Positions 5,108 to 30,317 are shown, numbered from the stretch's first letter. The stretch: 64,000 nt of DNA from Candidatus Aminicenantes bacterium UBA1061 (GCA_002316315.1 DCDG01000022.1:51-64050), one strand, 5' to 3'. The notes: generated from the sequence alone by a model not told the origin. Program-made: numbers and translations.

Positions 5108-5664
5108 GTGAAATTCAAAATCAGTCTAACCGACAGGACAAAAGGATTTCAAAAGATGAATATTATCTGGGCATAGCCCGCGAGGTATCGAGGCGAAGCA
5201 CCTGTTTCCGCCGGACAATTGGAGCTATTATTGTCCGCGATGATCAGATCATTTCGACCGGCTATGTCGGGGCACCGCGGAAAACCAAAGATAGCCTTCA
5301 GCACGGTTTTTGCCTGCGCGACCGCCTGCATATCCCCCATGGCCAGAGATACGAGCTCTGCCGCTCGGTTCATGCTGAGCAGAATACCATTATCAATGCA
5401 GCCAGAGCCGGGGTCAGCCTGCTGGGCGGCGATATGTTCATTTTCGGCAGCGACTCAAAAACCGGCCAGCCGATTGATGCTTTCCCCTGCTTTGTCTGTA
5501 AAAAAATGATCATCAATGCCGGGCTCAACCGGGTGGTGTGCTCAACAGCTGATGGTAAGTGGACAGTATTTTCTGTTGATGACTGGGCCCGCGACTGGCG
5601 GGAAAATGATATTCTCGATGATACACACCAATATGGAAAAACCAACGAGGGACAGCATGAGTAA
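5104..5664 (+). CDS. Deoxycytidylate (dCMP) deaminase, cytidine/deoxycytidylate deaminase family
   Basis: Zinc-binding motifs HAEQNTIINAA and PCFVCKKMIINAG. Confidence 0.85.
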   Translation: MSEIQNQSNRQDKRISKDEYYLGIAREVSRRSTCFRRTIGAIIVRDDQIISTGYVGAPRKTKDSLQHGFCLRDRLHIPHGQRYELCRSVHAEQNTIINAARAGVSLLGGDMFIFGSDSKTGQPIDAFPCFVCKKMIINAGLNRVVCSTADGKWTVFSVDDWARDWRENDILDDTHQYGKTNEGQHE

Positions 5665-7852
5665 AAAATCTCCTGGCCGGAAAATGTCAGAAAAGGTAGC
5701 CTGGGTGACTTTAATCACTATTATTTTACTAGGAGTTACGGCGGCTGCCGGGAGCCGACAGCAGGAAACAACGAGCAACCAGACTGGCAGCCTGCTGGAG
5801 CTACTGGGAATTGAAGTCTCACCTGAATCCCTCGATTACCTTCAGAATAAAACCCAGTTTCAGCTTCATACCCTTCTAACCGAGCAGCGTCATCCGAAGA
5901 CCTGGAACCTGAGCGAAAAAATAAAGACAGACACAGCCGCCGGCCTGCACCTGCTTTTCTCGGTGGATGAAGACATCGTGGCAAAACTCGACCAGCTGGC
6001 AGCTTCGCCCACCCTTATTGAGCAATTAGCCACAGAAATTAAAAAGACCATTCTCAGCGGGCACAAAATATATGTTTATGGCTGCGGGGCAACCGGGCGC
6101 CTGGCCAAGCAAATGGAAAGCACTTTCTGGCGGCCCTTCTGGTCTTCATTAAAGACGGATAAAGATCTCTGGCCAAAAATAGAAAAGAACCTCGGCCCGG
6201 GAATAAGCGACAAGCTCATCGGGGAAATGACCGGCGGTGACCGGGCCCTGATTTCTTCTCTCGAAGGGTTCGAAGATCTTCAGCTTATCGGCCGGCTGCA
6301 GTTAAAAGACCGGGGGATTGAAAAAGGAGACCTGGTCATAGCCGTCACCGAAGGCGGCGAGACCTCCTCGGTTATCGGCACCATCCTGGCTGCGCTGGAT
6401 GATTGGCGCCAGACTCCATCTTATTCCCCCACTGAGAGCCGGAAAAAACTCTACTTTGTCTATAACAACCCGGATGATAAACTCCGTCCTTTTGAACGCA
6501 GTCGGGCCGTCATTGATGAGCCAGGAATTACCAAAATCAATCTAACTACCGGACCTATGGCTATCACCGGCTCGACCAGAATGCAGGCTACGACGATTGA
6601 AACCTACGCGCTGGGTGTCGCCCTGCAGGCTGCCGCCTATGATTTGCTCAGGGATTTTCTAAGTCCGAAAGAACTGCAGAGAGCTGGCTTCGGGCAGCCT
6701 TACCTTATTGCTGATAACCTCAAGGCTTTTGCCCCTATCCTGAACCGAATAAAACGGGCTGTTCCAGCCATCGCCCCCTGGACTGAACTCGAAGCCAGGA
6801 CTTACGCCGGAGGGCATTTTTCTACCTATTTCGCTCAAAAAGCTTTGATTACTGTCTTTATTGACAGCACGGAGAGGAGTCCAACTTTCAGGCTCTACCC
6901 GCTTGATACGGTTGATTTACCTGAGCGACGCTGCTGGATTCAGGTCTGGACGCCGGCCGGGAGCGGCAGGGAAGCCTGGCTGTCTTTTCTGGGCCGACCC
7001 TTCCGCGGTCTTAATGAGGAGTTCTATCGCCCGGCCTTTGAAAAAGAGATAGACGATCCCTATTTAAAAAAGGCTGCTCTTGACAGCCTCAAAAAGGCCG
7101 GTCAGGCGCAGCAGGATTTGTATGATTTTTCTTTCTCGGAATTTAACATTAAAAAAAGAGGTCCGAAGTCAGGCGATTTAGGGGTCACAGTCGGACTGAC
7201 ACCGGAAGAAAATTATCTTCTTGATAGCAATTCACCCTTCAGCCGTTTCGGGCGTTTGTTTCTCGAAAATAAAGCCTCGCTGGTGATGGTCAATGTCACC
7301 GATCTCGAAGAGAAGAAGATAGCCCGGGCACAGAAAAACATCGAGAATTTTTATAACCTAAAGGCTTTACCGCCGGAGCAGAAACTCCATCAGGTCTGGC
7401 TATCGGTGGATATGGCCAATGATCCTTTCGAGCTGCGGCAGAATATGGCTTTAAAAATGGTACTTAATGCCCACTCGACGGCGGTCATGGCCAAACTTGG
7501 TCGGGTCATTGGCAATACCATGACCAATGTCAGTCCGAGCAATTTAAAATTAATCGGGCGGGCCACCTATTTAATTCAGTCCCATGTCAACGATTGTCTG
7601 AAAAGGCCAGGCTGGATCAAAAAGTATGGACGCCGCGAGCCAATAAGTTATGGCGAAGCTAATGCAGTTCTGTTCGATTCAATTGCCTATCTTAAGGACA
7701 AAGAAGATGTTGCCGGTCAGACAGCAGAAGTGGCTCTGTCAATTATTAGAATCCTCGAATCGCTGCGCCAGAAAAGAGGGATAACTAACGATGAAGCTCT
7801 GGCTATCGTTCAGCAGCAGGGTCTGGCTAACTACCTGGCCGGGATAAATTGA
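5657..7852 (+). CDS. Membrane-anchored/secreted double-SIS protein, MurQ etherase / glucokinase-regulator (GCKR)-like
   Basis: The track ORF starts at 5516 inside the deaminase gene. I place the start at ATG 5657 (MSKKSPGRKMSEKVAWVTLITIILLGVTAAAG, an 8-nt ATGAGTAA overlap with the upstream stop). SIS motifs are KIYVYGCGATGRLA, VTEGGETSSVIG and TGSTRMQATTIE. A second MurQ-like C-terminal segment is LKMVLNAHSTAVMAKLGRVIGNTMTNV. Confidence 0.65.
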   Translation: MSKKSPGRKMSEKVAWVTLITIILLGVTAAAGSRQQETTSNQTGSLLELLGIEVSPESLDYLQNKTQFQLHTLLTEQRHPKTWNLSEKIKTDTAAGLHLLFSVDEDIVAKLDQLAASPTLIEQLATEIKKTILSGHKIYVYGCGATGRLAKQMESTFWRPFWSSLKTDKDLWPKIEKNLGPGISDKLIGEMTGGDRALISSLEGFEDLQLIGRLQLKDRGIEKGDLVIAVTEGGETSSVIGTILAALDDWRQTPSYSPTESRKKLYFVYNNPDDKLRPFERSRAVIDEPGITKINLTTGPMAITGSTRMQATTIETYALGVALQAAAYDLLRDFLSPKELQRAGFGQPYLIADNLKAFAPILNRIKRAVPAIAPWTELEARTYAGGHFSTYFAQKALITVFIDSTERSPTFRLYPLDTVDLPERRCWIQVWTPAGSGREAWLSFLGRPFRGLNEEFYRPAFEKEIDDPYLKKAALDSLKKAGQAQQDLYDFSFSEFNIKKRGPKSGDLGVTVGLTPEENYLLDSNSPFSRFGRLFLENKASLVMVNVTDLEEKKIARAQKNIENFYNLKALPPEQKLHQVWLSVDMANDPFELRQNMALKMVLNAHSTAVMAKLGRVIGNTMTNVSPSNLKLIGRATYLIQSHVNDCLKRPGWIKKYGRREPISYGEANAVLFDSIAYLKDKEDVAGQTAEVALSIIRILESLRQKRGITNDEALAIVQQQGLANYLAGIN

Positions 7853-7860
7853 GGCAGGTT

Positions 7861-8964
7861 TTAAATCCGCTGGCTGTTAGATACAAAACAGGGTGGTTGC
7901 GGACGGCTTCTTCTCCGTTTTGGTGTCTTCACCTGCGGATAGACAAAAAGTTCACCGGCATAGTTTCTGAGCACAACTTTCTCCTCAGAAATTGACTGAA
8001 CATATTCAGGAATAAGCGGAATCTTACCACCGCCGCCAGGGGCATCAATTACATACTGCGGCACAGCCAGCCCGGATGTCCAGCCTCTCAGACCCTGATA
8101 AATTTCCAGCCCTTTCTCCACCGTGGTTCGAAAATGTTCGGTGCCCCGAACATAATCTGCCTGATAGATGTAGTAAGGCCTGACCCTGACCGTCAGGAGC
8201 TTCTGCATGAGCTTCCTCATCGTCTCGACGTCATCATTGACACCCTTAAGCAGAACAGTCTGGTTGCCGAGAGGAAGACCGGCGTCAGCCAGCAGGTTGA
8301 GGGCTCTGGCTGCCTCGGCTGTAATTTCGTCCGGGTGATTGAAATGAACATTCATATAGAGCGGGTGATATTTTTTGAGCATTGATACCAGTTCTTCGGT
8401 TATTCTCTGTGGAAGATAACAGGGCATTCTGGTCCCGATTCTGATAATTTCAACCTGGGGGATCGAGCGCAGCTGGCTCAGGATACTTTCCAGCCAGTCA
8501 TCGCTCAGAATGAGCGGATCGCCGCCCGAAACGATGACATCACGGATCTCCGGGTGTTCTTTTATGTAATTTATTCCGTCTTCAATGTAACGCGGGTTAA
8601 TTTTCGAAATATCGCCTACTTTCCTTTTTCTGGTGCAGAAACGGCAGTAAGAAGCACAGCTGTGAGCTACCAGAAAAAGAACCCGATCAGGATAGCGATG
8701 CACAATACTCGGCACCGGAGAATCAAGATCTTCTTCTAAGGGATCATCTTCGCCCGAGTTTTCAGCCAGCTCAGCCAGGTCAGGCACCACCTGTCGATAA
8801 ATTGGATCGCCTTTCCTTTTGATCAGGCTGGCGTAATAAGGAGTAATCTGAATCTTAAAGGCCCGGGCTATTTTCCTGACCGCTTCCACCTCCAGGCCAA
8901 AACACTCAGCTATTTCTTCTGGAGTTCTCAAACTGTGCTGCAGAATTTGTTGCCAGTCGTCCAT
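7861..8964 (-). CDS. kamA: KamA-family radical SAM aminomutase (lysine 2,3-aminomutase-like)
   Basis: 367 aa. Radical SAM cluster motif CASYCRFCTRKRK, then VIVSGGDPL, and a KamA-type N-terminus (ITPYYASLI). Substrate (Lys vs Glu/Arg) cannot be assigned by eye. Confidence 0.85.
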   Translation of the reverse strand: MDDWQQILQHSLRTPEEIAECFGLEVEAVRKIARAFKIQITPYYASLIKRKGDPIYRQVVPDLAELAENSGEDDPLEEDLDSPVPSIVHRYPDRVLFLVAHSCASYCRFCTRKRKVGDISKINPRYIEDGINYIKEHPEIRDVIVSGGDPLILSDDWLESILSQLRSIPQVEIIRIGTRMPCYLPQRITEELVSMLKKYHPLYMNVHFNHPDEITAEAARALNLLADAGLPLGNQTVLLKGVNDDVETMRKLMQKLLTVRVRPYYIYQADYVRGTEHFRTTVEKGLEIYQGLRGWTSGLAVPQYVIDAPGGGGKIPLIPEYVQSISEEKVVLRNYAGELFVYPQVKTPKRRRSRPQPPCFVSNSQRI

Positions 8965-8976
8965 TTTCTCCTTTTT

Positions 8977-9459
8977 TCACTCCTTTTCCCTGAGATATTT
9001 CCCGAAAATGACCCGGTCATCTCCTGACCGGTAAAAGTCAGGAATGCGAGCCATTTCCCGGTAGCCTAATTTCTCATAAAATTTTCTGGTTGGTAGATAT
9101 TTGGGTTGAGAAGAAGTTTCAATAATGACCAGCCTCCCACCGTTTTCCTTAACCTCGTCTTCGAGATGACGCACCAGAAGCCGACCGTAGCCCTGGCTCT
9201 GGACTTCAGGCGAAACAGCTATCCAGTAAAGATCCCAGGTGCCTTCAGTCAGCGGGGTCGGACCATAAGTTATATAGCCTGCAACTTTTCCAGTCTGGTC
9301 TTCCACCACCTCGATCTTATAATCCTGCTGCTCCGGCTGGTTGAGATAAATATCAATCAGCTCTTCGGCCACTTTTATCTCGTCGGGAAGAAAAAAGCGG
9401 GTGGCTTTAATCAGTCCGATGACCTGTTCGCGATCACCGCCGGTCATTGGTCGTAACAT
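8977..9459 (-). CDS. GNAT family N-acetyltransferase
   Basis: 160 aa. Acetyl-CoA binding segment VSPEVQSQGYGRLLVRHLE. It lies 12 nt upstream of kamA and overlaps the upstream ATP-grasp gene by 26 nt. Confidence 0.8.
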   Translation of the reverse strand: MLRPMTGGDREQVIGLIKATRFFLPDEIKVAEELIDIYLNQPEQQDYKIEVVEDQTGKVAGYITYGPTPLTEGTWDLYWIAVSPEVQSQGYGRLLVRHLEDEVKENGGRLVIIETSSQPKYLPTRKFYEKLGYREMARIPDFYRSGDDRVIFGKYLREKE

Positions 9460-10465
9460 CGCCTTCCTTCCTTTTCAAAGCGTTGCCGATCATCAGCTTC
9501 CAGAAATCAGCATAATCTATCCCTGCCGCTCTGAGGGCTCGGGCATAACCAGCATCAAGGCTGGTATCCGGGTTAGGATTCACTTCGAGAATAAATAATT
9601 CACCGCTGTCATTCATCCTTATATCTATGCGGGCATAGTCACGGCAGCCCATGACCTTGAAAGCATTGACAGCTATGGTCTGTAACCTGGCTTCAAGCTC
9701 CGAGTCGATCTTCGCCGGGCAAATCGGACAGGTCGTCTGGTACAATAAGTGATCTGGATACCATTTGGCTTCATAACTGCAGATATGGGGATAACCTTTA
9801 GGCATAGTGGAAAAATCTATCTCGGAAACAGGCAGGGCTTTGGGCTCGCCATCATCAAGAATAGCCACATTAAACTCCCGCCCATCAATAAATTCCTCAA
9901 CGATGGCCGGCTGCTCATAAGTTGCAATAACTCTTTTGATTTGCTCGGCCAGAGACCACCGGTCATAAACGACAGATTCCGGGTGAACCCCCAGGCTGGC
10001 ATCCTCGGAGTTGGGTTTAATAATCATCGGGAAACGCAGCTCGACAATTTCATCGGCAGAAGTAATCAGCTGACTGGGAGCAACCGGCAGGTTAAAAGAA
10101 CTCAGAATGGCCTTGGCCTGATGCTTATCCTGACAGAGGGCCAGGGTTCTGGCTCCATTACCGGTAAAGGCAATATGAAGAACTTCCATGACCGCCGCCA
10201 CATTTGATTCCCAGTGGGGATTCCCGAAAAAGCCTTCGCATAGATTAACAATGACCTGAACATTGAGTTCCTTAATCCGCCGCAGAAAATTAAACATACT
10301 GCGTTGAAGCGGGATCAGAATGGCTTCAATCCCGGACTGATTAAGGATCTGGCAGACGATCTCGGCTACCTTGGCCACAGAGTCCTCAGAAACTTTTTCG
10401 CGCCGGTAAATAAATGGCTCGTGGGTGTTAAAAGCCACGCCGACTTTCAGGCTATCCGCGGCCAT
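9434..10465 (-). CDS. D-alanine--D-alanine ligase-family ATP-grasp enzyme (paralog 2)
   Basis: Start moved to ATG 10465 (MAADSLKVGVAFN), a 14-nt overlap with the upstream gene. ATP-grasp core: FPMIIKPNSEDASLGV, EEFIDGREFNVAIL, RDYARIDIRMNDSGELFILEVNPNP. Confidence 0.8.
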   Translation of the reverse strand: MAADSLKVGVAFNTHEPFIYRREKVSEDSVAKVAEIVCQILNQSGIEAILIPLQRSMFNFLRRIKELNVQVIVNLCEGFFGNPHWESNVAAVMEVLHIAFTGNGARTLALCQDKHQAKAILSSFNLPVAPSQLITSADEIVELRFPMIIKPNSEDASLGVHPESVVYDRWSLAEQIKRVIATYEQPAIVEEFIDGREFNVAILDDGEPKALPVSEIDFSTMPKGYPHICSYEAKWYPDHLLYQTTCPICPAKIDSELEARLQTIAVNAFKVMGCRDYARIDIRMNDSGELFILEVNPNPDTSLDAGYARALRAAGIDYADFWKLMIGNALKRKEGDVTTNDRR

Positions 10466-11573
10466 GGTCACCCTCGTTGCCCGTTGAGAAGACATTAGCT
10501 TCAGTGGTAGCTGACTTCTGGAGCAGACCATAACGCCTGGCAGCCTCGACCACTACCCGGTTGATAAGCTGTTCATAAGTATAACCGGCTGCCCGGGCCG
10601 CTTTCGGCAAGCAGGAATTATCCTCAGGCCGGGGCAGAACACCGGGCAGAGGATTTATCTCAATGATATTTGGCTCACCCCGGTCATCAAGCCGGACGTC
10701 TATTCTCGCCCAGTCCCTTATCCGGAAGAGCCGACAGGTTTTGACAATAATCTGTTCTATCTTCCGCTGCAGGCTGGAAGTTATTTCTGCCGGACAGCGG
10801 AAAATATCCAGCGGTTTATCAGGTGTATCCCAGAGCCATTTAGCTTCGTAGGAGTAAATTGGCCTGGCACCGGCCGGGAGCTGACTATGGTCAATTTCAA
10901 CGATGGGTAAAACCTCGAGCTCGGGATAATTGCCCAGAACTCCAACCGTGAATTCTCGTCCGTCCAGGAACTTCTCGACAATGGCTGGCTGCTCGTAGAG
11001 GTTTTTTATCTCGCCAACTTTTTTCTTTAACTCTTTGCGGTTAAAAACCACCGAATCATTTTTTATACCCTTGCTCGACCCTTCATACAAAGGCTTAACA
11101 ATGCAGGGATAAGTAATAGCTGCCGGCAGATCATTTTCATCGTCCACAACCCGGAAGGGTGGAGTTGGAATTCGATGATAGGCCAGGATTTCTTTCGCTC
11201 TTGCTTTGTCGAGACACAGACCCAGTGTCAGAGGATCAGAGCCGGTGTAAGGAATATTTAAAATCTCGCAGATAGTTGGAATATGCGATTCGCGATTCGG
11301 GCCGAATAGCCTTTCGGCCATATTAAAAACGAGATCCGGTTTTTCTTTGAGGAGTCTGATATAGGCTAACTCATCAGCTTCAATCGGGATTACCCGGTGA
11401 TATCTTTCGAGCGCTTGCTGAACGGCTTTGATCGTTTCATCGCTGTCACATTCAGCAAGCAAATCAGGTGGAGGCTCTTCGCTCTCATCCATTTTGTCAT
11501 CATAAAGATAGGCCCCTAGTGCTCGGGCCATGCCCTGTTTCGAACTGAAGAGCAATGCAAGTTTCATTTTCAT
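10452..11573 (-). CDS. D-alanine--D-alanine ligase-family ATP-grasp enzyme (paralog 1)
   Basis: Likely start MKMKLALLF (11573) or MKLALLF (11567). ATP-grasp core: YPCIVKPLYEGSSKGI, EKFLDGREFTVGVLG, RDWARIDVRLDDRGEPNIIEINPLPG. Confidence 0.8.
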   Translation of the reverse strand: MKMKLALLFSSKQGMARALGAYLYDDKMDESEEPPPDLLAECDSDETIKAVQQALERYHRVIPIEADELAYIRLLKEKPDLVFNMAERLFGPNRESHIPTICEILNIPYTGSDPLTLGLCLDKARAKEILAYHRIPTPPFRVVDDENDLPAAITYPCIVKPLYEGSSKGIKNDSVVFNRKELKKKVGEIKNLYEQPAIVEKFLDGREFTVGVLGNYPELEVLPIVEIDHSQLPAGARPIYSYEAKWLWDTPDKPLDIFRCPAEITSSLQRKIEQIIVKTCRLFRIRDWARIDVRLDDRGEPNIIEINPLPGVLPRPEDNSCLPKAARAAGYTYEQLINRVVVEAARRYGLLQKSATTEANVFSTGNEGDHGRG

Positions 11574-11686
11574 TTGTATATATACAACAATTTTTAGTGA
11601 TGTCAATAGTTTTTTTCATATTTTTATACTTTTATATACTTTTATTTGTATTTTTTTTATAAAAAGGCACTATAAGTGGTGTCGAA

Positions 11687-12298
11687 TTAGTGCTGTCGAA
11701 CGATTTCCTTAACCCTCATCAGCTGAACCTGATAGGAACGTTCCATTTCTTCCAGCCTGGAAGAAATAGCATGGATCGTCTCTTTAAGATTCGGAATCAA
11801 AATATATTCAAGAGCGTTGACCCTTCTTCTGGTCACTTCTATTTCTGTCGTCAGCAGCTCCAGTTTTTTCCAGAGGCTGGCGTATTCTAAAAGTGTTGGC
11901 CAGAGCTGTTTAAAATGCTTCAGGGCTACTTCCAGCTCAGCTTCTGTCCGGATAAAATCGCAGTCACCCGGCTTAAATTGCCCGGTTTCAAATTCGGGCA
12001 CAGTCAGGTTGAGCAGTCGTCCGGTTTTAACCTCAAGCTGAAGCTCACCGTCTTTGATGAGGGCTGGCAATTCAGATTGAGCCTGCGTTACCCGCACCAT
12101 GGCCATTGACCTGGTGATGATTCTGAATTCCTCATCCACTTCTTCTTTTATCCGGTTAAACTGCCTGGCCGCCTCCAGAAAATTACGCATGAGTTCTTCA
12201 AGTTTATCCTTGAGAAGTTTATGTCCTCTTTCGGCCAGAGTCAGGCGGCGTCTGAGCCTCATGAGCTCCATCCGGTTAGGATTAACTTTAAGCTTCAT
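11687..12298 (-). CDS. atpD: V/A-type ATP synthase subunit D
   Basis: The MKLKVNPNRMELMRLRRRLTLAERGHKLLKDK N-terminus is typical of subunit D. Last gene of the operon. Confidence 0.9.
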   Translation of the reverse strand: MKLKVNPNRMELMRLRRRLTLAERGHKLLKDKLEELMRNFLEAARQFNRIKEEVDEEFRIITRSMAMVRVTQAQSELPALIKDGELQLEVKTGRLLNLTVPEFETGQFKPGDCDFIRTEAELEVALKHFKQLWPTLLEYASLWKKLELLTTEIEVTRRRVNALEYILIPNLKETIHAISSRLEEMERSYQVQLMRVKEIVRQH

Positions 12299-12324
12299 TT
12301 AAAACTCCAGCTTGATGGCTCGTC

Positions 12325-13695
12325 TCATTCACGGTAATATTTCTCAAGATACTCGGTTCTGATTCTCTTCAGCTCTTTTTCCGGCAGGAGGCGAAGCAAC
12401 TTCCAGCCAATATCAATGGTGTCAGTAATTCCTCTGGCTTCCAGTTCCCCCTGGCGGACAAACTCGTTTTCAAAGCGGTCAGCAAATTTTAGGTAGAGCT
12501 GATCAAGATCACTCAGAGCAGCCTCACCCAGAATAAGAGCCAGCTCACGGGCTTCTTTTCCCCGGGCATAGCAGGCAAAGAGCTGGTTCAAAACGTCAGC
12601 ATGATCTTCTCTCGTTTTATCCGGGCCAATGCCTTTATCTTTAAGCCTGGAAAGCGAGGGCAAAACATCAATCGGGGGATAAACACCACTGCGGTGAAGC
12701 TCTCGGCTCAGAATAATCTGACCTTCGGTAATGTAGCCGGTGAGGTCAGGGATCGGGTGAGTTTTGTCATCATCGGGCATGGTCAGGATGGGAATCATGG
12801 TAATTGAGCCTTTTTTCCCTTTGATGCGGCCGGCTCGTTCATACATGGTGGCCAGGTCAGTATAAAGATAACCGGGATAACCACGGCGGCCTGGAATTTC
12901 TTTCCGGGCAGCTGCGATTTCTCGCAGGGCTTCAGCATAAAAGGTCATATCAACCAGAATAACCAGGACGTGCATATCAAGATCAAAGGCCAGGTATTCA
13001 GCGCAGGTCAGAGCCAAACGTGGCGTGGCATTTCTTTCAATGGCCGGTTCGTTAGCCAGATTGAGAAAGAGGACGGCTCTCTCCAGAGCTCCCGTGCGCC
13101 GGAAATCCTCAATAAAGAAATTAGCCTCTTCAAAAGTGATGCCCATGGCGGCAAAGACCACAGCAAATTTTTCTTCCCGGCCAAGAACCTTAGCCTGCCT
13201 GGCAATCTGAGCCGCAATCTGGGAATGAGGCAAGCCGCTACCTGAAAAGATAGGCAGCTTCTGGCCACGAACCAGAGGATTCATGCCATCAATAGCTGAA
13301 ATACCGGTCTGAATAAACTCAGAGGGATAATCGCGGGCTTCGGGATTGATCGGACTGCCATTGATGTCCAGCATCTTATGGGCAATAATCCTCGGACCGC
13401 CATCACGCGGCTCACCGGAACCATCAAAGACCCGACCGATGATTTCTTCCGAAACAGGCAGCTGCTGCGAGCGGCCGAGAAACCTGACCCGCGAGCGGTT
13501 GACATCGAGGCCAACCGTTCCCTCAAAAACCTGAACAACAGCTTGATTGGTCGAAACATCGAGGACTGTCCCCCGCCGGCGGTGGCCAGTGGCATCTTCA
13601 ATCTCGACCAATTCATTGTATTTAACGTCGGAAATTTTTTCGACAATAATCAGCGGGCCAACAATATTGGAAACTGTTAAATATTCTTTCGCCAT
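12325..13695 (-). CDS. atpB: V/A-type ATP synthase subunit B
   Basis: 456 aa. [25 protein letters not shown] and [22 protein letters not shown]. Confidence 0.95.
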
Positions 13696-13700
13696 AATTT

Positions 13701-15458
13701 TTAACCTCGACTGGAAAGTTCCTTAAATGAAACATCTATTTTCTTTTCTACCCCCAGCAGAGCTTGCTCATCGTGAGGGAAATATTTCATTCTGGCCAGC
13801 TGCTCACGGACTTCAAGTGAGATAATCTCCTTGAAGTCGCAGCCTTCCTCCAGGGCCTGATTGGCTTTCTGATGAAAATAAAGAATGTTACGCAGCATCA
13901 GATATTGCTGGCACATGGGGGTGTAAGTGTCCTGGGGATGATAAGCATTCTGGTGGAGGAAATCCTCGCGGATGGAGCGGGCCGTTTCCAGAACCAGCCT
14001 GTCTTTAAAAGACAGTGATTCCACCCCGATTAAGCGGGCTATTTCCTGAAGTTCAGACTCCATTTCGAGGATTTTTAAAGCTTCCTGGCTGAGATCGGTA
14101 AAATCTTCAGCTACCTTTTCAGCCATATATTTTTTGAGCGAATCTCTGTATAGCGAATAACTCTGCAGCCAGTTGATGGCTGGGAAATGACGCATATTCG
14201 CCAGCTGATCATCAAGAGCCCAGAAAACTTTAACCACCTTGAGTGTGGCCTGAACGACAGGGTCAGACAGGTCACCACCAGGCGGGCTAACGGCGCCAAT
14301 AACACTCAGCGCTCCTTCCCGGTGCTCTGAACCGAGGCAAACCACCTTGCCGGCGCGTTCATAGAACTCAGCCAGGCGGCTGGCTAAATAGGCTGGATAG
14401 CCTTCATCACCTGGCATTTCTTCCATTCGACCGCCAATTTCGCGCAGAGCTTCAGCCCAGCGCGAGGAAGAATCAGCCATCAGTGCTACCGAGTAGCCCA
14501 TATCCCGGAAATACTCGGCGATGGTTATGCCGGTATAAATCGAAGCTTCACGGGCAGCCACCGGCATATTGGAAGTATTGGCAATAATGATTGTTCTTTC
14601 CATTAATGGCCGGCCGGTAGATGGATCTTTCAGTTCCGGGAAGCTCAGCAACAGGTCAGCCACTTCATTGCCGCGCTCGCCGCAGGCCACATAGACAATA
14701 ATCTGAGCATCTGACCATTTGGCTAACTGATGCTGTACAACCGTTTTGCCACTGCCAAAAGGACCCGGGACACAGGCCGTGCCGCCCTTGGCCAGGGGGA
14801 AAAGTGTATCGAGAATTCTCTGACCGGTAACCAGCGGTTCATCAGGCATCATTCTTTCTTTAACCCGGCGCTGCCTTCTGACCGGCCAGACCTGAAACAG
14901 CTTGATTCCAACTTCAGAGCCAGCCTGCGTTTTTACCCGGCAGACCGTTTCTTCAACAGTAAATTCCCCGCTCTTAATATCAATAATTTCACCTTCCGCC
15001 CCAGCCGGAACGAGAATGCGGTGCTGGATAAGCGGGGTTTCCTGCACATAGCCAATGATATCACCCGTGACCAGCCTGTCTCCTTTTTTCTTTTCAGGAG
15101 TAAAAGCCCATTTTCTGTCACGTCTTAAAGCCGGCATTTCAATCCCGCGTGAAACAAAGTCACCGTGTTCGCGGCGAATAACATCCAGCGGTCTTTGAAT
15201 ACCATCATAAATAGAGCCGAGCAAGCCTGGCCCAAGCTCAACCGATAATGGCTGTTCGGTTAAAGTTACGGGCTCGCCAGGGCCAACGCCGGTCGTATCC
15301 TCATAAACCTGGATATAGGCGAGGTCATTATTTAACTCAATTATTTCACCGACCAGCCCCAGCTGGCCGACTTTGACCATATCATACATTTTGGCCCCGA
15401 GACAGTCTGAAGCCACCACCAGAGGGCCAGCTACCCTGATTATCTTTCCCTGTTTCAT
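13701..15458 (-). CDS. atpA: V/A-type ATP synthase catalytic subunit A
   Basis: Walker [10 protein letters not shown], and [21 protein letters not shown]. Start set at [15 protein letters not shown] (ATG 15458, 1 nt after the subunit F stop). The track ORF extends to 15485. Confidence 0.95.
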
Positions 15459-15459
15459 G

Positions 15460-15792
15460 TTAAGTCCTTTCTCTGAATAGTGCATCTGAACCGGTCGCCC
15501 GAATCGAAAGTTCTCTCATGGCTCTGGCCACAGATTCGGAAGCTCCCCGATAATCAGAAAAGCCCAGACAAACCGGCAGAAATTTGTGGCTTAGGGCTGA
15601 AATTTCCGCTTTTAATGGTTCCAGCCACTTTTCCTGGATGAGGCAGAGACTGTACTTTTCTTGAACCACCTGCTCAAGCATTGTTCTGGCTTCTTCCAGA
15701 TTGGCCGGTGAATAGACCGCCAGGCCAAAAAGACGGAAGAGCTGACAGAACTCGGCCTCTCCGATAATGGCAATTCTTGCTGGTTCAGACAT
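15460..15792 (-). CDS. atpF: V/A-type ATP synthase subunit F
   Basis: 110 aa. IAIIGEAEFCQLFRLFGL is a typical subunit F start. Position between C and A fits. Confidence 0.85.
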   Translation of the reverse strand: MSEPARIAIIGEAEFCQLFRLFGLAVYSPANLEEARTMLEQVVQEKYSLCLIQEKWLEPLKAEISALSHKFLPVCLGFSDYRGASESVARAMRELSIRATGSDALFRERT

Positions 15793-16573
15793 ATGTCTGG
15801 CTTATCCTTTCTTTTAATAAAAAAGCAGGAATATTCAACATCTGGCCAAGGATGACCAACCGGATAAGTTTAAGTTCTTGCCTCCGGGCTAAGCCATAAG
15901 CAAAAAGTGGCTCGGGTCCGAAAGTGACTTTTTTAGCCGACCGGAGATAATCCATGACGAGATTTTCCATCTCCCGCTCAAAAACGACAAAGCTATCCTG
16001 AGCCTGCAAAAAGTTAAGTCCTTCGCGCCAGAGTTGTTCATAGGAAGTCGTCTTTAAAAACTGGGCAAAATCTTCCAGATTGGAATTGTAATTGTCGATA
16101 AAAGTTTTCTTCTCGAGCCGCCCGCCTGTTACATAACGCTCTTCAAACTGACTGACGGGATGTCCGGCATAGCGGCTGCGCAGAAAACTTTTAAGGTTGG
16201 CCAGGTCAATTTTCAGCCGGAAAAAATCAAGAAAAAACTGCTCGTTAAGAAGATAAAGAGACCCGGCCGCTTTAACTATCTCATCTGCCTCCCGGTAAAA
16301 GCCATAAAGGTTTTTATCCAGGAAAAGCTCCTCCAGAGTGGTATCGAGGGCAGTACGTTCCGTCTCGAGGAAAGCCTCCAACTGGACAGGAGTAGTTACC
16401 TCTCTCAGCCTGTCAGTTGATTTTCCGGCCTCGGAAATTAACTCTACCGCCCGGCTAAAACCAGGAGCTTCGGCCGCTTCTCTAAAGATGCGGGTAGGGA
16501 CGAGGTAGTTTTCGAGGGCCTTAATTCGCCCGACGGCGAAAGCATAATCCAAAGGAGAAAACTTAGCAGTCAT
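15785..16573 (-). CDS. atpC: V/A-type ATP synthase subunit C (V0 d-like), short form
   Basis: 262 aa, helical. YAFAVGRIKALENYL motif. Operon position between E and F. Shorter than the roughly 320-350 aa I expect for this subunit. Confidence 0.75.
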   Translation of the reverse strand: MTAKFSPLDYAFAVGRIKALENYLVPTRIFREAAEAPGFSRAVELISEAGKSTDRLREVTTPVQLEAFLETERTALDTTLEELFLDKNLYGFYREADEIVKAAGSLYLLNEQFFLDFFRLKIDLANLKSFLRSRYAGHPVSQFEERYVTGGRLEKKTFIDNYNSNLEDFAQFLKTTSYEQLWREGLNFLQAQDSFVVFEREMENLVMDYLRSAKKVTFGPEPLFAYGLARRQELKLIRLVILGQMLNIPAFLLKERISQTYV

Positions 16574-16574
16574 G

Positions 16575-16991
16575 TCAGATCTTAAGCCAGGCCAGAATAT
16601 CGTTTTCGACTTCGGGCCCTAATTCGGCTAAAAGCCGGTCGGTCTCGAGTGTTTCCTCCAGTATTCCTTCCCTGGAGACAACCTCTTTTTTAAGCCTCAG
16701 TTTCTTTAACTCTTCATTCTTCAGGGCTTCTTCGATTACCCGGGAAATCAACTCTCTTCTGGTTTTAAGGAGTTCCATTCTTCTCTGCAATTGGGCCTGG
16801 GTTAGAATCCGACTGGCCTCCAGGCTGGCTTCGGTTTCAGCCTGTTTGATGATTGACTCAGCCTGAGCCCGGGCTTTTTCTTCAGCTTCTCTTTTCAGGC
16901 CGTCAGCTTTTTTTCTGGCTTCAGCCAGAATAGCTTCCACTTCCTGCTCAGCTTCCTGCTCAATTTTTTCCAGTATTTTCTCAAGGCTCAT
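16575..16991 (-). CDS. atpE: V/A-type ATP synthase subunit E (short, 138 aa)
   Basis: Charged coiled-coil N-terminus (LEKILEKIEQEAEQEVEAILAEARKKA). Operon position between K and C. Confidence 0.75.
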   Translation of the reverse strand: MSLEKILEKIEQEAEQEVEAILAEARKKADGLKREAEEKARAQAESIIKQAETEASLEASRILTQAQLQRRMELLKTRRELISRVIEEALKNEELKKLRLKKEVVSREGILEETLETDRLLAELGPEVENDILAWLKI

Positions 16992-17007
16992 TTTTCAACC
17001 TGAAAAA

Positions 17008-17499
<492 letters not shown>

Positions 17500-17514
17500 T
17501 CAGCAATTATTTTA

Positions 17515-19434
17515 TCATCTGATAAATTCAATATATTTATTTTCTAATTTAACCGGCTTAAAAGGTTTACCGCCGGATTCATAAAATCTCCCAAAAAATT
17601 CCACAAATTGCAATCTCATCGAATGGACAAACCCGCCCAGGAGACCTATAGCCAGGTTAAAAAGATGGCCCCCGGCAAAAATTAGAATGCCGATGATCCA
17701 ACCAACAAAAGGAAAGCTCCAGGCAATCTGAACCAGAGAATTGACTACCATGGCAATGACACCGGTGGAGAGGCCGAGAGCAAGAATGCGGGAATAAGAC
17801 AGGGTATCAGAAAAGTAGCTGGTTATACCATAGAGAGCATAAAGGCCGTTAAAGAAGCGGGCCAGAATATTTCTCGAAGGCGAGCTGAAAAAGACAATAC
17901 CGGCAGCCCCGATAAGAGCCAGGATACCTAAAACTGGCGGTTGTTTAAGAAGGAAATAGAACAGAAGAGAAGGCAGAAGCAGTAACCAGCCTCCTTTGAC
18001 GGCAATGGCCGTTACTTTATTCCCTTCTCTGAAATCTTTAACCAGGCTGAGAAAAGTCGACAGCATAACCTGAATAAAGCCCAGCGCCAGAGATAGAATC
18101 AAATAAGGAATTGGATTTTCAATGGGATCGATCAAAACCAGAGGCTTAATCGGAAAACCAAACCAGCCGCCAAAAAGTGTACCGAAAATCATATTGGATA
18201 TACCCAAATAGAAAAACAGGGTCATAAAGAGCCTGGTTCCACCCTTTGGTTCAGCCTTTTTTAAATAGAGCAGGCTGAGGAGCGACATAACCAGGCCATA
18301 GCCGGCTTCGCTGATACACATGCCAACAAACACGAAGAAAAATGGCGCCAGGAAAATGGTCGGATCTATACCGCCCGGGAGGGGCAGGCCATATAAGCTG
18401 GTAACAACTTCAAATGGTTTAATCAACTGAGGATTATCAAGAATAACCGGAACTTCATCTCGCTCTTCCGGTTTTGGGTCCCTTAAATTTAAATAAATAG
18501 TTGGTGAAAACTGATTGACTTTTCGAACCAAATAATCTGTCTGAGCAGCCGGTACCCACCCTGCCAGCCAGGCGGTTTTTTCAGTCAGCCCGGCCAGGCT
18601 GGTCCCGACCAGCTTTTGTTTTTCATTTAGAAGCACATCATAAACAGCCATAAGGGAAGGGCGGTGAACAGCAAAACCAGACATGTCTTTTTCGAGCTTG
18701 CCTATCTCCTCTTTGGCTTGAGATTTCTGCTGTTCCAGTTCAGCTATAAGGTCAGAGACTTTTTCATCTCCCTTTAACTTTAATAAGTAATGGTCAAGAG
18801 AAATAAAAGCAAGTTTATATCCGGAAAAAATAGCTTCGACCTCTTCCCTCAGGCTTTGATGATAAATAATCAGAACATAAGCCAGATTCTTTTCAGTCGA
18901 AATAATGGAGATAGAAGCAGGCTGGTCAGCCAGGTTCTCCTTTAAACTTTCAATATCCTCTGTTTTAACTTCAGCTATTTTTACCAGGCAGCGGTTAAGG
19001 CCAGTCAGACTTCTAAGAGGCACATTAAGAGCCGTGAGGGGTATTAAAAATTCTTTTTCTCTTTCCATCTGTTTGATATGCTGTACGAGCTGAGCTCGCC
19101 TGGCTTCCAGTTCCTCATAATCTTCAACCACTTTCTGGTAGCCATAATCCAGAAGAACTTTTCTCAGACTGGCTGAATATTTTGCCTTCGGGGTTAAAAG
19201 CTTTTCCAGGCCTTTTTTGGGCTCCAGTTCAGGCAGGTTTTGAATCACATGATTGATTCTGGTCAGCCAGCGTTCGTAATCTGCCACCTCCGCAGGAGAA
19301 GAAGAAAGCTCCAGTTCCTCATAGGGGAGAGGGTCAAGCTGAGCCACCCCCAGCTCCTGGAGGTAAGAGACGAAGCCCTCCAGTTCATCTTTGGGCAGGA
19401 GGACTTCCATTCGCTTGACCGGGGCAATAGCCAT
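17515..19434 (-). CDS. atpI: V/A-type ATP synthase subunit I (a-subunit)
   Basis: 639 aa. Soluble coiled-coil N-terminal half plus a polytopic C-terminal half containing the conserved Arg region (SYSRILALGLS). Confidence 0.9.
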   Translation of the reverse strand: MAIAPVKRMEVLLPKDELEGFVSYLQELGVAQLDPLPYEELELSSSPAEVADYERWLTRINHVIQNLPELEPKKGLEKLLTPKAKYSASLRKVLLDYGYQKVVEDYEELEARRAQLVQHIKQMEREKEFLIPLTALNVPLRSLTGLNRCLVKIAEVKTEDIESLKENLADQPASISIISTEKNLAYVLIIYHQSLREEVEAIFSGYKLAFISLDHYLLKLKGDEKVSDLIAELEQQKSQAKEEIGKLEKDMSGFAVHRPSLMAVYDVLLNEKQKLVGTSLAGLTEKTAWLAGWVPAAQTDYLVRKVNQFSPTIYLNLRDPKPEERDEVPVILDNPQLIKPFEVVTSLYGLPLPGGIDPTIFLAPFFFVFVGMCISEAGYGLVMSLLSLLYLKKAEPKGGTRLFMTLFFYLGISNMIFGTLFGGWFGFPIKPLVLIDPIENPIPYLILSLALGFIQVMLSTFLSLVKDFREGNKVTAIAVKGGWLLLLPSLLFYFLLKQPPVLGILALIGAAGIVFFSSPSRNILARFFNGLYALYGITSYFSDTLSYSRILALGLSTGVIAMVVNSLVQIAWSFPFVGWIIGILIFAGGHLFNLAIGLLGGFVHSMRLQFVEFFGRFYESGGKPFKPVKLENKYIEFIR

Positions 19435-19911: not shown

Positions 19912-20691
19912 TCAAGCCATAAATTCCTGATAAAGGAAAAAAGCTTGTTCTGGTAACCTTTTTTTACGCCATAAAGACTCAAGCTTCGAGAGCCTTGTCC
20001 TGGTTTCGATCGGACTAAAATTAAAAACCAAATGGGCACCGCCCTCGTTAAGACTATTAATATAATCAAAAGAAGCTGGCATATCAAGATGAAAAATTAA
20101 ATGCCCTTTTCTTTCCCTTATCTTTCCAAGAAGTTCCAGGACGACTGACTGGCTGGTCTCATCAAAAAACCGGTTGGACAAATGCAGCCAGCAGTTTTTT
20201 TTAGGCCACTCAGCCAGGCTGTCCTCAGGCTGCCCGTGGTGATAATAGACCAGAACCGCACCGCCAGCCGAGGTCTCCCCAGCCAGTCTCGACAACTGGT
20301 TTGCTTCCCAGTTTTTATGCCGGGAAGAAACAAAAACCGTTTTGAGACCGGAGGTCAACTTAGAATCAAGAGCTTCAGCCTGAGAGCCGTCTTCAAGGAA
20401 AAAATACACCGGGCAATTTTTTTTCTTCAAGAGTTCAGTCATGGCGGCTAATTGAAGAAAATCCGGCCGGGCCAGATCTCCAGTATAAAGGGCAAAACGA
20501 AACTCGGAGAGAACAGTCAATTCATCCAGGCTAAAGAGGCCAGTATCGAGGATAATTGGTTTTAGCTTTTTTGGAGAAGCAAACTCAAGCAGTCCCTGGA
20601 GTTCGGCAAAATTAAAGATATCATCACGGATGATCAGTCGCTGGCCTTTATTAAGCGGTCGAACCTGCTCTTCAAGTTTAACCCAATCCAT
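19912..20691 (-). CDS. Hypothetical protein built of repeated strand-helix units
   Basis: 259 aa with no motif I recognise. Recurring roughly 25-30-aa units (LIIRDDIFNFAELQGLLEF / PIILDTGLFSLDELTVLSEF / WLHLSNRFFDETSQSVVLELL / LIFHLDMPASFDYINSL). Same strand as the ATPase operon, 97 nt upstream of it. Confidence 0.6.
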   Translation of the reverse strand: MDWVKLEEQVRPLNKGQRLIIRDDIFNFAELQGLLEFASPKKLKPIILDTGLFSLDELTVLSEFRFALYTGDLARPDFLQLAAMTELLKKKNCPVYFFLEDGSQAEALDSKLTSGLKTVFVSSRHKNWEANQLSRLAGETSAGGAVLVYYHHGQPEDSLAEWPKKNCWLHLSNRFFDETSQSVVLELLGKIRERKGHLIFHLDMPASFDYINSLNEGGAHLVFNFSPIETRTRLSKLESLWRKKRLPEQAFFLYQEFMA

Positions 20692-26778: not shown

Positions 26779-27558
26779 TTAGAGCTGCTCCAGATTTTTT
26801 CTTAACCTGGCAAAAAATTTTTCTGCTTCTTCATAATCCCTGGCCTTAATGATATGTTTAAGAAACTCGAGCCGCGAGCAGATCTTTTCCAATTGCGGGA
26901 TTGAGTGAGGATTAAACAGCACTTCTGCCAGCAGAAAATCATCTTCTTGCAGGACTTTCCTGGCAATTTCTTTATGACGCTCGAAAGTTGTTCCTGGGAC
27001 GATCTTTGAAGTCAGACAGGCAGCAAAGGTTATAGATGAAGCAAAGGGAAGAGTCAGAGAATAAGACATCAGCTCATCATGTTCACTAAAGGAATATTCA
27101 AAAACATTCAGGCGGCATTTTTCAAAGAAATTTAACAGATGCTTTTTGGCTTCTTCATCCGATTCAGAAATGACGATGAGATTTTCATCTTCTATTTGAT
27201 TCAGGACAGCAAATCTGGGACCAAACATCGGATGGCAGGAGGCAAAGCGGAAAGGACATTGCCGATAATATTCAGGCAGCTCACCCTTAATCGAGGTGAT
27301 ATCAGCAATAAAACAATCTCTGTCGAGAAAAGGTGCGGCTGCTTCAAAAGCTTCAATGGTATTTCGGAGGCTTACAGCATTGAATAGAAACTCCGGGCGG
27401 AAATGAGCAAGTTCCTGAAAACTGGCCAGAGCCAGGGCATTTTTTATGTTCTTCAGCTTGCTACTATCGCGGTCATAAACAGCCACCTGATGAAAGCCAG
27501 CCAGCTCATGCACCAGCCAGCAACCCATATTACCTGCACCGATAACTGCTATTCTCAT
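26779..27558 (-). CDS. tyrA: Prephenate dehydrogenase
   Basis: MRIAVIGAGNMG Rossmann start. 259 aa. ATGA overlap with the upstream pheA. Confidence 0.7.
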   Translation of the reverse strand: MRIAVIGAGNMGCWLVHELAGFHQVAVYDRDSSKLKNIKNALALASFQELAHFRPEFLFNAVSLRNTIEAFEAAAPFLDRDCFIADITSIKGELPEYYRQCPFRFASCHPMFGPRFAVLNQIEDENLIVISESDEEAKKHLLNFFEKCRLNVFEYSFSEHDELMSYSLTLPFASSITFAACLTSKIVPGTTFERHKEIARKVLQEDDFLLAEVLFNPHSIPQLEKICSRLEFLKHIIKARDYEEAEKFFARLRKNLEQL

Positions 27559-28616
27559 CTTTTCTCCTCCTGATAACAGCCGAGAAACTTATAGAAAGTT
27601 GCTTTCTGCTCAACCTCATACAGAGCTTCTTTGACCCTGTCTTCGGAATCTGAGCCCTGAAAATCAGCCAGAAAAAGGTAATGGCCCGGATGGAATTTCT
27701 GTGGTCTTGATTCTATTCTGGTTAGATTAATCCCGCGGTCTGAAAAGACTTTCAGCATCTCACACAAAGCGCCTGCCTCATCTTTCAAAGCAAAAATAAT
27801 GGTGCATTTATTTCCACCTTTGACCTTTTTTTCAAGGGCGAGAACAATAAATCTCGTCCGGTTTGTTCTTTCATCCTGAATATTTTCCTTTAAAACCTTA
27901 AGGCCATAAAATTTTTCGCAATCAGCAGAGGCAATAGCAGCAGCCGCACCAGGTCTCAAAGAGGATAGCATTTTAGCTGCTCCAGCTGTGTCATAGAAAC
28001 TCCTTGGTTCAAATTTGTGACGGCGCAAGAACTCACGGCACTGGGCCAGTGCTTGAGGATGGGAATAGACAATTCTAATTTCCCTGTAGTCTGTTTCCGG
28101 CAGGGTTAATAAACAGTGATTGACAGGAAGGCTGGCCTCACCCACAATCATTAGATCATTGGCAGCTAACAGGCCATTGACTTCGCTGACCGAGCCTTCA
28201 ATAGAATTTTCCACAGGAACAATACCGAAATCGAAGTTTTTATTCTTTATCCCCTCAAAGACCTCCTTAAACTCCTGGCAGGGAATGGGGACGAGATCCG
28301 CCTCGTATTTCCTGGCCGCCAGTTCACTATAAGCTCCATGTTCCCCCTGGAAGCCAACTAACAGGCGACCACTGGCTTGAAGCTGCTTACTTTCTTCAAT
28401 AATGATTTTATACAGGTTTTGAATAAACTCAGCCGAAAGAAGCCTGCCCGAAAACCTCATAATATTATCTAAAACCTGCTCTTCCCTTTCTTTATCAGTA
28501 ACTGTTAATTTTTGCCTTCTGGTTCTCAGGCCAAGTTCCATTCTTTCATAGACCAGCTTCAAAATCTCGCCATCAAGATGGTCAATTTTATTCCGAATTT
28601 CGTTCAGATTCATCAT
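27555..28616 (-). CDS. pheA: Bifunctional chorismate mutase / prephenate dehydratase (P-protein)
   Basis: CM helix LNEIRNKIDHLDGEILKLVYERMEL, PDT domain VGFQGEHGAYSELAA, and ACT domain with TRIESRPQK. Start taken as MMNLNE, preceded by GGAGG. The track uses an upstream TTG (28637). Confidence 0.9.
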   Translation of the reverse strand: MMNLNEIRNKIDHLDGEILKLVYERMELGLRTRRQKLTVTDKEREEQVLDNIMRFSGRLLSAEFIQNLYKIIIEESKQLQASGRLLVGFQGEHGAYSELAARKYEADLVPIPCQEFKEVFEGIKNKNFDFGIVPVENSIEGSVSEVNGLLAANDLMIVGEASLPVNHCLLTLPETDYREIRIVYSHPQALAQCREFLRRHKFEPRSFYDTAGAAKMLSSLRPGAAAAIASADCEKFYGLKVLKENIQDERTNRTRFIVLALEKKVKGGNKCTIIFALKDEAGALCEMLKVFSDRGINLTRIESRPQKFHPGHYLFLADFQGSDSEDRVKEALYEVEQKATFYKFLGCYQEEKR

Positions 28617-29655: not shown

Positions 29656-29848
29656 TTAAGATTACCCCCCCCCTTTCTCGTTATATCGTTTTTTTATTAA
29701 AAAGCCATTTTAGATAGTCCTCTTACTGCTTTTCACTGGTGAAGCCTTTCATTCTTTGCGGTGGTGAAAAAGGAGCAATTTATTCGCCAACCTTATTTTC
29801 ATCGTTTTTGGGCAATCATAATTCAAGACAAGTTCGGATGTCAAATTG

Positions 29849-30292: not shown

Positions 30293-30317
30293 TTCAGAAG
30301 TAGAGGAGCAAAAGAAG

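Follow-up and report, generated by a model that had tools for sequence, protein, structure and literature searches.

We analyzed a stretch of 64,000 nucleotides (nt) from Candidatus Aminicenantes bacterium UBA1061 (GCA_002316315.1, DCDG01000022.1:51-64050; the whole stretch is called the window here). We propose, with a probability of roughly 0.55, that four minus-strand genes at 7861-11573 form one module that makes a small beta-lysine amide or peptide independently of ribosomes and nonribosomal peptide synthetases. The product would most likely be an acetylated beta-lysine-containing peptide. In the open reading frame (ORF) listing, the genes encode a KamA-family aminomutase, a GNAT acetyltransferase, and two ATP-grasp (AG) ligases, AG2 and AG1:

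7861-8964, minus strand: KamA, a predicted short-form KamA-family lysine 2,3-aminomutase of 367 amino acids (aa), with Radical_SAM and LAM_C domains (Pfam)
8977-9459, minus strand: GNAT, a small N-acetyltransferase of the 2R7H subfamily, 160 aa (Pfam Acetyltransf_1, E = 8e-15)
9434-10465, minus strand: AG2, the second Ddl-like ATP-grasp ligase (Pfam Dala_Dala_lig_C, E = 3e-31)
10452-11573, minus strand: AG1, a Ddl-like ATP-grasp ligase and the first gene of the operon (Pfam Dala_Dala_lig_C, E = 2e-33)
11574-11686, minus strand: the AT-rich control region of the operon, 113 nt, 19.5% GC

A first-pass annotation of this DNA had named the same domain types (Radical_SAM plus LAM_C, Acetyltransf_1, and two copies of Dala_Dala_lig_C), and our Pfam search returned each of them. 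It had also given the gene spacing correctly, with a 12-nt gap (8965-8976) and overlaps of 26 nt (9434-9459) and 14 nt (10452-10465). The two ligases, which it had described as paralogs, are 36% identical to each other. The AG2 ORF covers 9434-10531 (365 aa), and an internal ATG at 10465 (MAADSLKVGV...) matches the N termini of orthologs and is the likely start. Similarly, the AG1 ORF reaches a TTG start at 11606, and the ATG at 11573, which gives MKMKLALLF, agrees with most homologs (about 372 aa long). With overlaps of this kind, translation may be coupled, and AG1 and AG2 may form a heterodimer resembling the Ddl homodimer.

We compared the KamA protein with species-representative genomes, found 382 relatives, and examined the best 80 loci. 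Nearly all of these were from Aminicenantes, and the closest were Candidatus Saccharicenans metagenome-assembled genomes (MAGs), at 98% identity; the window thus belongs to a genome of this genus. The order AG1-AG2-GNAT-KamA was held in these 80 loci wherever the contig reached and was complete in 76 of them. We gathered 160 further loci using a natural KamA-ATP-grasp fusion and the PDB relative of GNAT as seeds, so that the four-gene count covers 240 fetched loci. All four genes were adjacent on one strand in 180 of the 240, which far exceeds chance. Three gene orders occurred among the 180: AG1-AG2-GNAT-KamA (166 loci), KamA-AG1-AG2-GNAT (9 loci), and GNAT-KamA-AG1-AG2 (5 loci).

The module is spread over about ten bacterial phyla or more. 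In Ignavibacteriota, it is carried by the isolate Stygiobacter electus and by MAGs assigned to Melioribacter roseus and Ignavibacterium album. The four genes also occur together in a Chlorobiaceae-labeled MAG, KSB1, Calditrichia, Marinimicrobia, Verrucomicrobiota, Lentisphaerae/Victivallales, Gemmatimonadaceae, Anaerolineae, a Myxococcia MAG, Nitrospirota (Magnetoovum), and Omnitrophota, and in Desulfovibrionaceae in the MAG-assigned genera Oleidesulfovibrio and Halodesulfovibrio. The first-pass annotation had treated the four genes as one pathway, and their joint occurrence in these orders and phyla carries their co-conservation well past close relatives. The flanking genes change wholly between phyla (RecG and NAD kinase; a P-type ATPase; IlvD and a subtilase; PilZ and ScpB). 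Because the flanks are so completely different, the unit of selection is exactly these four genes. No transporter or regulator gene was found among the module flanks examined across phyla. Synteny is kept throughout Aminicenantes and Ignavibacteriota, where the module has been inherited vertically as a core locus. We also considered lysine fermentation and, on present evidence, rejected it; no enzyme of that pathway was found among the Pfam-scanned flanks, and no search was aimed at kamDE, kdd, kce, or kal.

Gene fusions link the four activities further. We compared AG1 with 1.84 billion cluster representatives, obtained 1227 clusters at E < 1e-30, and classified the top 150. Single AG proteins made up 107 of these and AG-AG tandems 36; the others were AG-AG-AG (2 clusters), KamA-AG (3 clusters), AG-KamA (1 cluster), and AG-GNAT (1 cluster). 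Many of the seemingly single-AG proteins have a degenerate ATP-grasp half as an N-terminal extension, and therefore the tandem state is deeply rooted in the AG family. We found KamA-AG1 fusions (P0202, P0257, P0137, and L166), AG1-KamA fusions (P0195 and L168), and AG2-GNAT fusions (P0231 and L083). Pfam showed additional AG-GNAT fusions, including one single-ORF case in a Victivallales locus. Wherever KamA is fused, its ligase partner is an AG1-type domain, and fusions to a window-type GNAT always use an AG2-type domain. As read from these proteins, the fusions bind the four activities into one process, within which KamA would pair with AG1, and AG2 with GNAT.

The KamA sequence argues strongly for L-lysine as the substrate and beta-lysine as the product. 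KamA aligned with the Clostridium subterminale lysine 2,3-aminomutase (LAM) structure 2A5H at 406 bits over 343 residues. Its radical S-adenosylmethionine (SAM) motif CxxxCxxC reads CASYCRFC (residues 103 to 110) and aligns with CSMYCRHC of 2A5H. In the same alignment, the pyridoxal 5'-phosphate (PLP) lysine of LAM, Lys337, is kept within the motif APGGGGK, and both Asp293 and Asp330 are present. The three motif cysteines, Asp293, Asp330, and Lys337 are identical in the KamA proteins of all 160 fetched loci that we checked for these six positions. In LAM, the two aspartates hold the epsilon-ammonium group of lysine, and they are replaced in glutamate 2,3-aminomutase.

Among the family models, only the cut-off of the general family TIGR00238 was reached (315 bits; cut-off, 199). 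The subfamily models ranked AblA (483 bits; cut-off, 525), glutamate 2,3-aminomutase (438 bits; cut-off, 650), arginine 2,3-aminomutase (379 bits; cut-off, 600), AblA_like_2 (323 bits), and EpmB (TIGR03821, 244 bits; cut-off, 369), and the AblA, glutamate, arginine, and EpmB scores all lie below their cut-offs. The first-pass annotation had raised the type of KamA as a point to check. The protein is nearest to AblA and LAM (483 and 406 bits) and not to EpmB (244 bits), with both presumed lysine-binding aspartates kept. Its C terminus is about 50 residues short. Because LAM_C was matched at positions 3 to 57 of 127 only and the position of LAM Cys268 is Asp, KamA is a short form with most of the C-terminal domain gone. 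Cys268 and the C-terminal Cys cluster reportedly belong to the tetramerization/Zn domain of clostridial LAM.

AG1 and AG2 are related to D-alanine--D-alanine ligases and depart from them in the substrate site. The best NCBIfam Ddl model gave 175 bits for AG1 and 156 bits for AG2, against a cut-off of 243, and the other Ddl and Van models among the best 25 matches listed lay far further below their cut-offs. In the PDB, the structural relatives of both proteins were solely Ddl/VanA enzymes (E of 1e-24 to 1e-28; best for AG1, 4e-28). We aligned the proteins of 19 lineages with Escherichia coli DdlB, whose residues 50 to 296 match the PDB alignment. AG1 and AG2 fell into two clean, separate, ancient orthologous groups. 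The catalytic residues Arg255, Asp257, Glu270, and Asn272 are kept in AG1 and AG2 of all 19 lineages, and the equivalent of Glu15 and the omega-loop Lys215 of Ddl are conserved as well.

The substrate-site changes are of several kinds. Tyr216 of DdlB is Trp in AG1 and AG2 of the window-type lineages, and His63 is Ala or Cys, with a conserved Glu next to it. AG1 has the signatures AExD(S/T)xxT and EGSSKG, extra conserved acidic residues, and, in window-type lineages, an N-domain insertion of 20 to 30 aa. AG2 has the signatures EDAS and NPNPD; it carries NPNPD...AG where DdlB has PGMTSHSL, so that the Ser281/Leu282 motif, which in Ddl holds the carboxylate of the second D-alanine, is gone. Because the two groups are separate and the catalytic residues are kept, AG1 and AG2 are predicted to be two different active ligases with non-Ddl substrates and not a redundant pair. 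Ddl and VanA thus share the fold and the catalytic residues with AG1 and AG2 and are their closest sequence kin (DdlB structures), whereas the scores below the Ddl cut-offs, the altered D-Ala subsite, and an operon context unrelated to the cell wall set the two proteins apart.

GNAT matched PDB entry 2R7H at 127 bits (E = 4.5e-36; residues 13 to 152 against 34 to 172). This is an uncharacterized Desulfovibrio structure, presumably from strain G20, that its depositors named "putative D-alanine N-acetyltransferase." GNAT scored 22 bits against the AblB model TIGR03827 (cut-off, 205) and 53 bits against the RimI model (cut-off, 86). It has 160 aa, compared with about 270 aa for the two-domain AblB. 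Its 11 listed NCBIfam matches included neither an Ngg-type family nor a streptothricin acetyltransferase model. By these scores, GNAT is not an AblB ortholog, which supports the earlier proposal that the product is not plain acetyl-beta-lysine.

On this basis, we propose the following pathway. The short-form KamA, with its [4Fe-4S]/SAM and PLP sites, would convert L-lysine to beta-lysine (3,6-diaminohexanoate); the conserved residues argue strongly for this step. AG1 would receive beta-lysine straight from KamA, as the fusions suggest, and, with an acyl-phosphate intermediate as in Ddl, would form the first of the ATP-dependent amide bonds. AG2 may then make a second amide bond, and GNAT may acetylate a free amine. 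For the last two steps we rely on analogy. Ngg is a bifunctional GNAT/ATP-grasp enzyme that, with the amidotransferase AsnO, makes the N-acetylated peptide solute N-acetylglutaminylglutamine amide (NAGGN), and AG2 and GNAT are paired as in Ngg. The pathway would end in an N-acetylated beta-lysyl di- or tripeptide retained in the cytoplasm. The NAGGN pathway shares the logic of a GNAT with an ATP-grasp ligase, the AG2-GNAT fusions of relatives mirror the Ngg architecture, and the PP-loop-like protein of an archaeal variant (described below) recalls AsnO. In contrast, the ATP-grasps here are Ddl-like and two in number, an aminomutase is added, and the substrate would be beta-lysine instead of glutamine. 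No gene for an AsnO-type amidotransferase was found in the operon (ORF listing and Pfam). The resemblance to NAGGN is one of mechanism only.

Several related loci combine parts of this module with other genes. In L165 (6682-10835), L168 (1024-5196), and L169, an ATP-grasp-KamA fusion is accompanied by an ANL-type adenylating enzyme (about 435 aa, TSGTTG motif) and a Peptidase_S51 protein (cyanophycinase/PepE family); the peptidase is fused at the N terminus in L165 and encoded downstream in the other two. In two archaeon-like contigs, L252 (4673-8166) and L253 (6001-10830), the gene after a KamA-ATP-grasp fusion encodes a protein of about 450 aa. Its SFGKD(S/C) motif reads as that of a putative PP-loop ATPase, and no Pfam family is on record for it; L253 additionally has an Orn/DAP/Arg-decarboxylase-fold gene. 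An Omnitrophota locus, L251 (5287-12883), contains an ArsR-type regulator, a LysW-like zinc ribbon with the acidic tail DYFDD, a KamA-AG1 fusion, AG2, GNAT, a third ATP-grasp-like protein of 327 aa, and a TreT-type trehalose synthase. A KamA and AG1-type core with changing partners, in which a beta-lysine source is combined with two enzymes for ATP-dependent amide formation and at times with a peptidase, is the pattern expected of a diversifying small peptide-metabolite pathway.

Other loci lack the core. In Myxococcota, an AG2-like ATP-grasp and a GNAT occur without KamA and AG1, together with a transglutaminase-like protein in Vitiosangium (L240, 6938-9955) and as a pair in Archangium/Hyalangium (L232, L243, L244, and L250); by analogy, this pair resembles a minimal Ngg-like dyad. 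In Halobacteriovorax (Bacteriovoracaceae; L162, 7001-10122, and L163), a 670-aa tandem AG-AG precedes a Peptidase_S58 (DmpA/BapA-type aminopeptidase), another L-amino-acid-ligase-like ATP-grasp lies nearby, and KamA and GNAT are absent. The tandem AG-AG seed P0124 reached Bacteriovoracaceae loci only, all of them without KamA and GNAT, and therefore the ATP-grasp family is wider than the beta-lysine module. We did not count as the same module the GNAT-only loci in which a GNAT lies beside an M28-like protein of about 1000 aa. The M28-like proteins of a Thermoanaerobaculia MAG and a Deltaproteobacteria MAG (L176, 4798-8450, and L191, 6673-11402) are 53% identical, and L191 also has a non-KamA radical-SAM protein. 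These two loci look like a different, uncharacterized GNAT-centered system.

We weighed four other explanations of the four genes. The ATP-grasp pair might polymerize beta-lysine, either by itself or in alternation with an acidic amino acid, into an oligomer or a cyanophycin-like storage polymer that GNAT caps or neutralizes. A branched or alternating polymer needs two distinct ligase activities, the S51 peptidases of L165, L168, and L169 belong to the cyanophycinase/dipeptidase E family, the Halobacteriovorax tandem is followed by the S58 aminopeptidase, and the decarboxylase-fold gene of the archaeon-like locus could be LysA, giving high-flux lysine. Cyanophycin synthetase and cyanophycinase also offer a precedent, with ribosome-independent ATP-grasp amide bonds to a basic amino acid. 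Unlike that system, the window-type module has no peptidase, its proteins are small and separate without the Mur-ligase-type second domain of CphA, and it includes a GNAT, which has no role in cyanophycin-type polymers. Known Ddl-clade enzymes yield dipeptides, not polymers. We therefore consider a polymer unlikely. The attachment of beta-lysine to a macromolecule (elongation factor P [EF-P], another protein, a carrier protein, or a peptidoglycan precursor), with the ATP-grasps in place of EpmA, seems less probable still. The KamA homolog EpmB does provide the beta-lysine of EF-P for ATP-dependent ligation, and RimK- and LysX-type ATP-grasps modify proteins; the LysW-like zinc ribbon lies two genes upstream in the one Omnitrophota locus, and a MurQ-like gene adjoins the module convergently in Aminicenantes. 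These two neighbors are each limited to one lineage, however, and KamA is closer to AblA and LAM and falls short of the EpmB model. In the window and 250 loci examined, we found neither an efp gene (tblastn with an EF-P query) nor, in the window or near the module, a LysRS-like EpmA. The ligases here are ATP-grasps from the Ddl clade (its known members use small-molecule substrates), a GNAT is present, and the second ligase is swapped in variants for ANL- or PP-loop-type enzymes, which are typical of metabolite pathways.

KamA and GNAT might also make plain N-acetyl-beta-lysine next to cell wall Ddl paralogs that are chance neighbors. KamA with a GNAT makes N-epsilon-acetyl-beta-lysine in known pairs (AblA/AblB of methanogens and KamA/YodP of Bacillus); here, too, the aminomutase adjoins a GNAT, scores highest with AblA, and keeps the lysine, PLP, and SAM residues. 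The public name "D-alanine--D-alanine ligase" for the AG genes and the depositors' label for 2R7H would fit as well. We nevertheless regard this explanation as highly improbable. The KamA here is short and below the AblA cut-off, GNAT is of another subfamily and fails the AblB model (22 against 205 bits), and both ligases score below the Ddl models (175 and 156 against 243 bits), with Tyr216 replaced by Trp in both and the Ser281/Leu282 region replaced in AG2. Moreover, the two dedicated ligases are obligatory partners that accompany KamA and GNAT across three gene orders and are fused to them in several phyla. Conversely, AG1, AG2, and a 2R7H-type GNAT are not near the true AblA genes of Thermoplasmatota, such as that of L093, which scored 573 bits with the AblA model. 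We give equally little credence to an antibiotic-like beta-lysine peptide with GNAT as a self-protection enzyme, in the manner of the streptothricin acetyltransferases that acetylate the beta-amino group. Streptothricins, viomycin, and related antibiotics do contain beta-lysine as a building block, small GNATs detoxify them, and several dipeptide antibiotics are built by ATP-grasp ligases. Exporter, regulator, and other tailoring genes are absent from the module, and a vertically conserved core locus in Aminicenantes and Ignavibacteriota is unlike accessory antibiotic clusters; the streptothricin acetyltransferase families are also missing from the listed GNAT matches.

Among roles for the acetylated beta-lysyl peptide that we favor, our leading guess is that of a compatible or protective solute in the cytoplasm. 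Like ablAB, ectABC, and ngg-asnO, the module stands on its own. The named hits in Desulfovibrionaceae belong to Halodesulfovibrio and Oleidesulfovibrio, both marine or halotolerant, and one locus adjoins TreT. Several points weigh against the pathway or this role. The Aminicenantes carriers, which have the module in their core gene set, come from digesters, peat, and freshwater sediment, and these nonsaline habitats weaken an osmolyte role. AG1, AG2, and GNAT have no characterized homolog; their only structural kin are Ddl enzymes and one structural-genomics entry that carries no annotation. The product is a prediction, and sequence alone does not reveal the partner substrates. The specificity role given to Asp293 and Asp330 comes from the literature on LAM and glutamate 2,3-aminomutase. 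Genes for export or uptake and known stress regulators were not found at the module, and the peptidase partners in related systems (S51, S58, and M28-like) would equally fit a peptide or polymer that is turned over.

A broader proposal is that the module represents a new and widespread class, in which a heteromeric Ddl-like pair and a short-form KamA make N-acetylated beta-lysyl peptides as a solute or nitrogen reserve and the core has been recombined with other partners; we hold this more tentatively, at slightly less than even odds. If the predicted product is right, a new beta-amino-acid peptide would belong to the primary or stress metabolism of bacteria in about ten phyla or more. On the broader proposal, many uncultured anaerobic phyla and some cultured ones would use such peptides as a major solute of the cytoplasm or as a nitrogen reserve, and the carriers include dominant uncultured groups of sediments and digesters (Aminicenantes, Ignavibacteriota, Calditrichia, and Marinimicrobia). 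The KamA and AG1 core, recombined with ANL-type, PP-loop-type, and peptidase partners, would yield a family of beta-lysine amides, and the ligases would be new ATP-grasp enzymes that accept beta-amino acids and are useful for beta-peptide synthesis. All components come from known families, and the AblAB and NAGGN pathways cover parts of the logic. The ligases are publicly named "D-alanine--D-alanine ligase," "ATP-grasp domain-containing protein," or "hypothetical protein," and hundreds of genomes call the genes "D-alanine--D-alanine ligase," "KamA family protein," and "GNAT," with the pathway unrecognized. The first-pass annotation had known of no characterized pathway of this composition, and in the literature we searched, we likewise found no paper describing the module. 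The genome papers of Melioribacter and Caldithrix mention no aminomutase. The isolate Stygiobacter electus and the taxa behind the MAGs under M. roseus, I. album, Oleidesulfovibrio, and Halodesulfovibrio offer testable carriers.

The operon has a putative promoter of its own, marked by a conserved promoter-like motif. Ahead of AG1, we found TTGACA (11606-11601), a 16-nt spacer, and TATATA (11584-11579), followed by the ATG at 11573. We compared the window region 11574-11686 with L002, L004, L007, L008, L012, and L018. Across these seven Saccharicenans-like loci, TATTGACAT, the 16-nt spacer, and TGTATATATACA are unchanged, whereas the proteins there are only 70 to 88% identical. Because the -10-like element TATATA stops 5 nt ahead of the AG1 ATG in the window, the AG1 mRNA is apparently leaderless. 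A leader of about 95 nt is kept in three relatives (L007, L012, and L018) and is missing in the window. A consensus promoter and terminator scan gave counts not above those of shuffled sequence, and its strict -10 rule missed the conserved motif. We found no RNA element, and no lysine riboswitch, with Rfam (the whole window at the gathering threshold and 7500-12400 at E <= 1) or a tRNA scan.

The region also contains a palindrome, CACTTATAGTG, at 11678-11668, directly past the stop codon of V-ATPase subunit D. It is unchanged in the seven Saccharicenans-like loci, for which the comparison gives it as CACTAATAGTG, and may serve as a weak terminator or as an operator. The first-pass annotation had noted an AT-rich region at 11574-11686 and a neighboring V-ATPase operon, and we recovered both: the region has 19.5% GC compared with 46% for the window, and a V/A-type ATPase operon lies upstream of the four genes at 11687-19434, complete in the subunit order I-K-E-C-F-A-B-D. 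We rejected a functional tie to the V-ATPase. The adjacency is confined to Saccharicenans-like genomes and a few other Aminicenantes loci and is lineage specific, without functional meaning.

On the other side of the module, a 778-aa protein (5516-7852, plus strand) is convergent with KamA and, in most loci from Aminicenantes, keeps its synteny with the module. Its matches to models of MurQ (MurNAc-6-phosphate etherase) and SIS domains are piecewise and below their cut-offs. It is more than twice as long as MurQ and is a putative unusual SIS-domain protein.

The window further holds a LysW-type alpha-aminoadipate lysine biosynthesis cluster at 37436-42641 on the minus strand:

37436-38617, minus strand: LysJ-like transaminase
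38649-39449, minus strand: [LysW]-aminoadipate kinase, above the model cut-off
39452-40474, minus strand: homocitrate-synthase-like gene
40497-41552, minus strand: LysY/ArgC
41562-42416, minus strand: LysX, above the model cut-off
42462-42641, minus strand: LysW-like zinc ribbon, 59 aa, ending in EEDWGQ

Given this cluster, the organism appears to use the rare Thermus-type route for lysine, the predicted substrate of KamA. The LysW-type pathway is also described in the genome paper of Caldithrix, and Calditrichia carry the four-gene module as well.

Elsewhere in the window, two ORFs, at 58070-59878 (plus strand, 602 aa) and 19912-20691 (minus strand, 259 aa), matched no Pfam family at E <= 1e-5. 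Genes for amino acid biosynthesis are abundant at 26779-36220 and 43496-52214. They include prephenate dehydrogenase, chorismate mutase/prephenate dehydratase, aspartate-semialdehyde dehydrogenase, aspartate kinase, cysteine synthase, trpA, and anthranilate synthase genes, along with a HcyBio-type homocysteine synthesis protein that has a ferredoxin domain (33553-34893).

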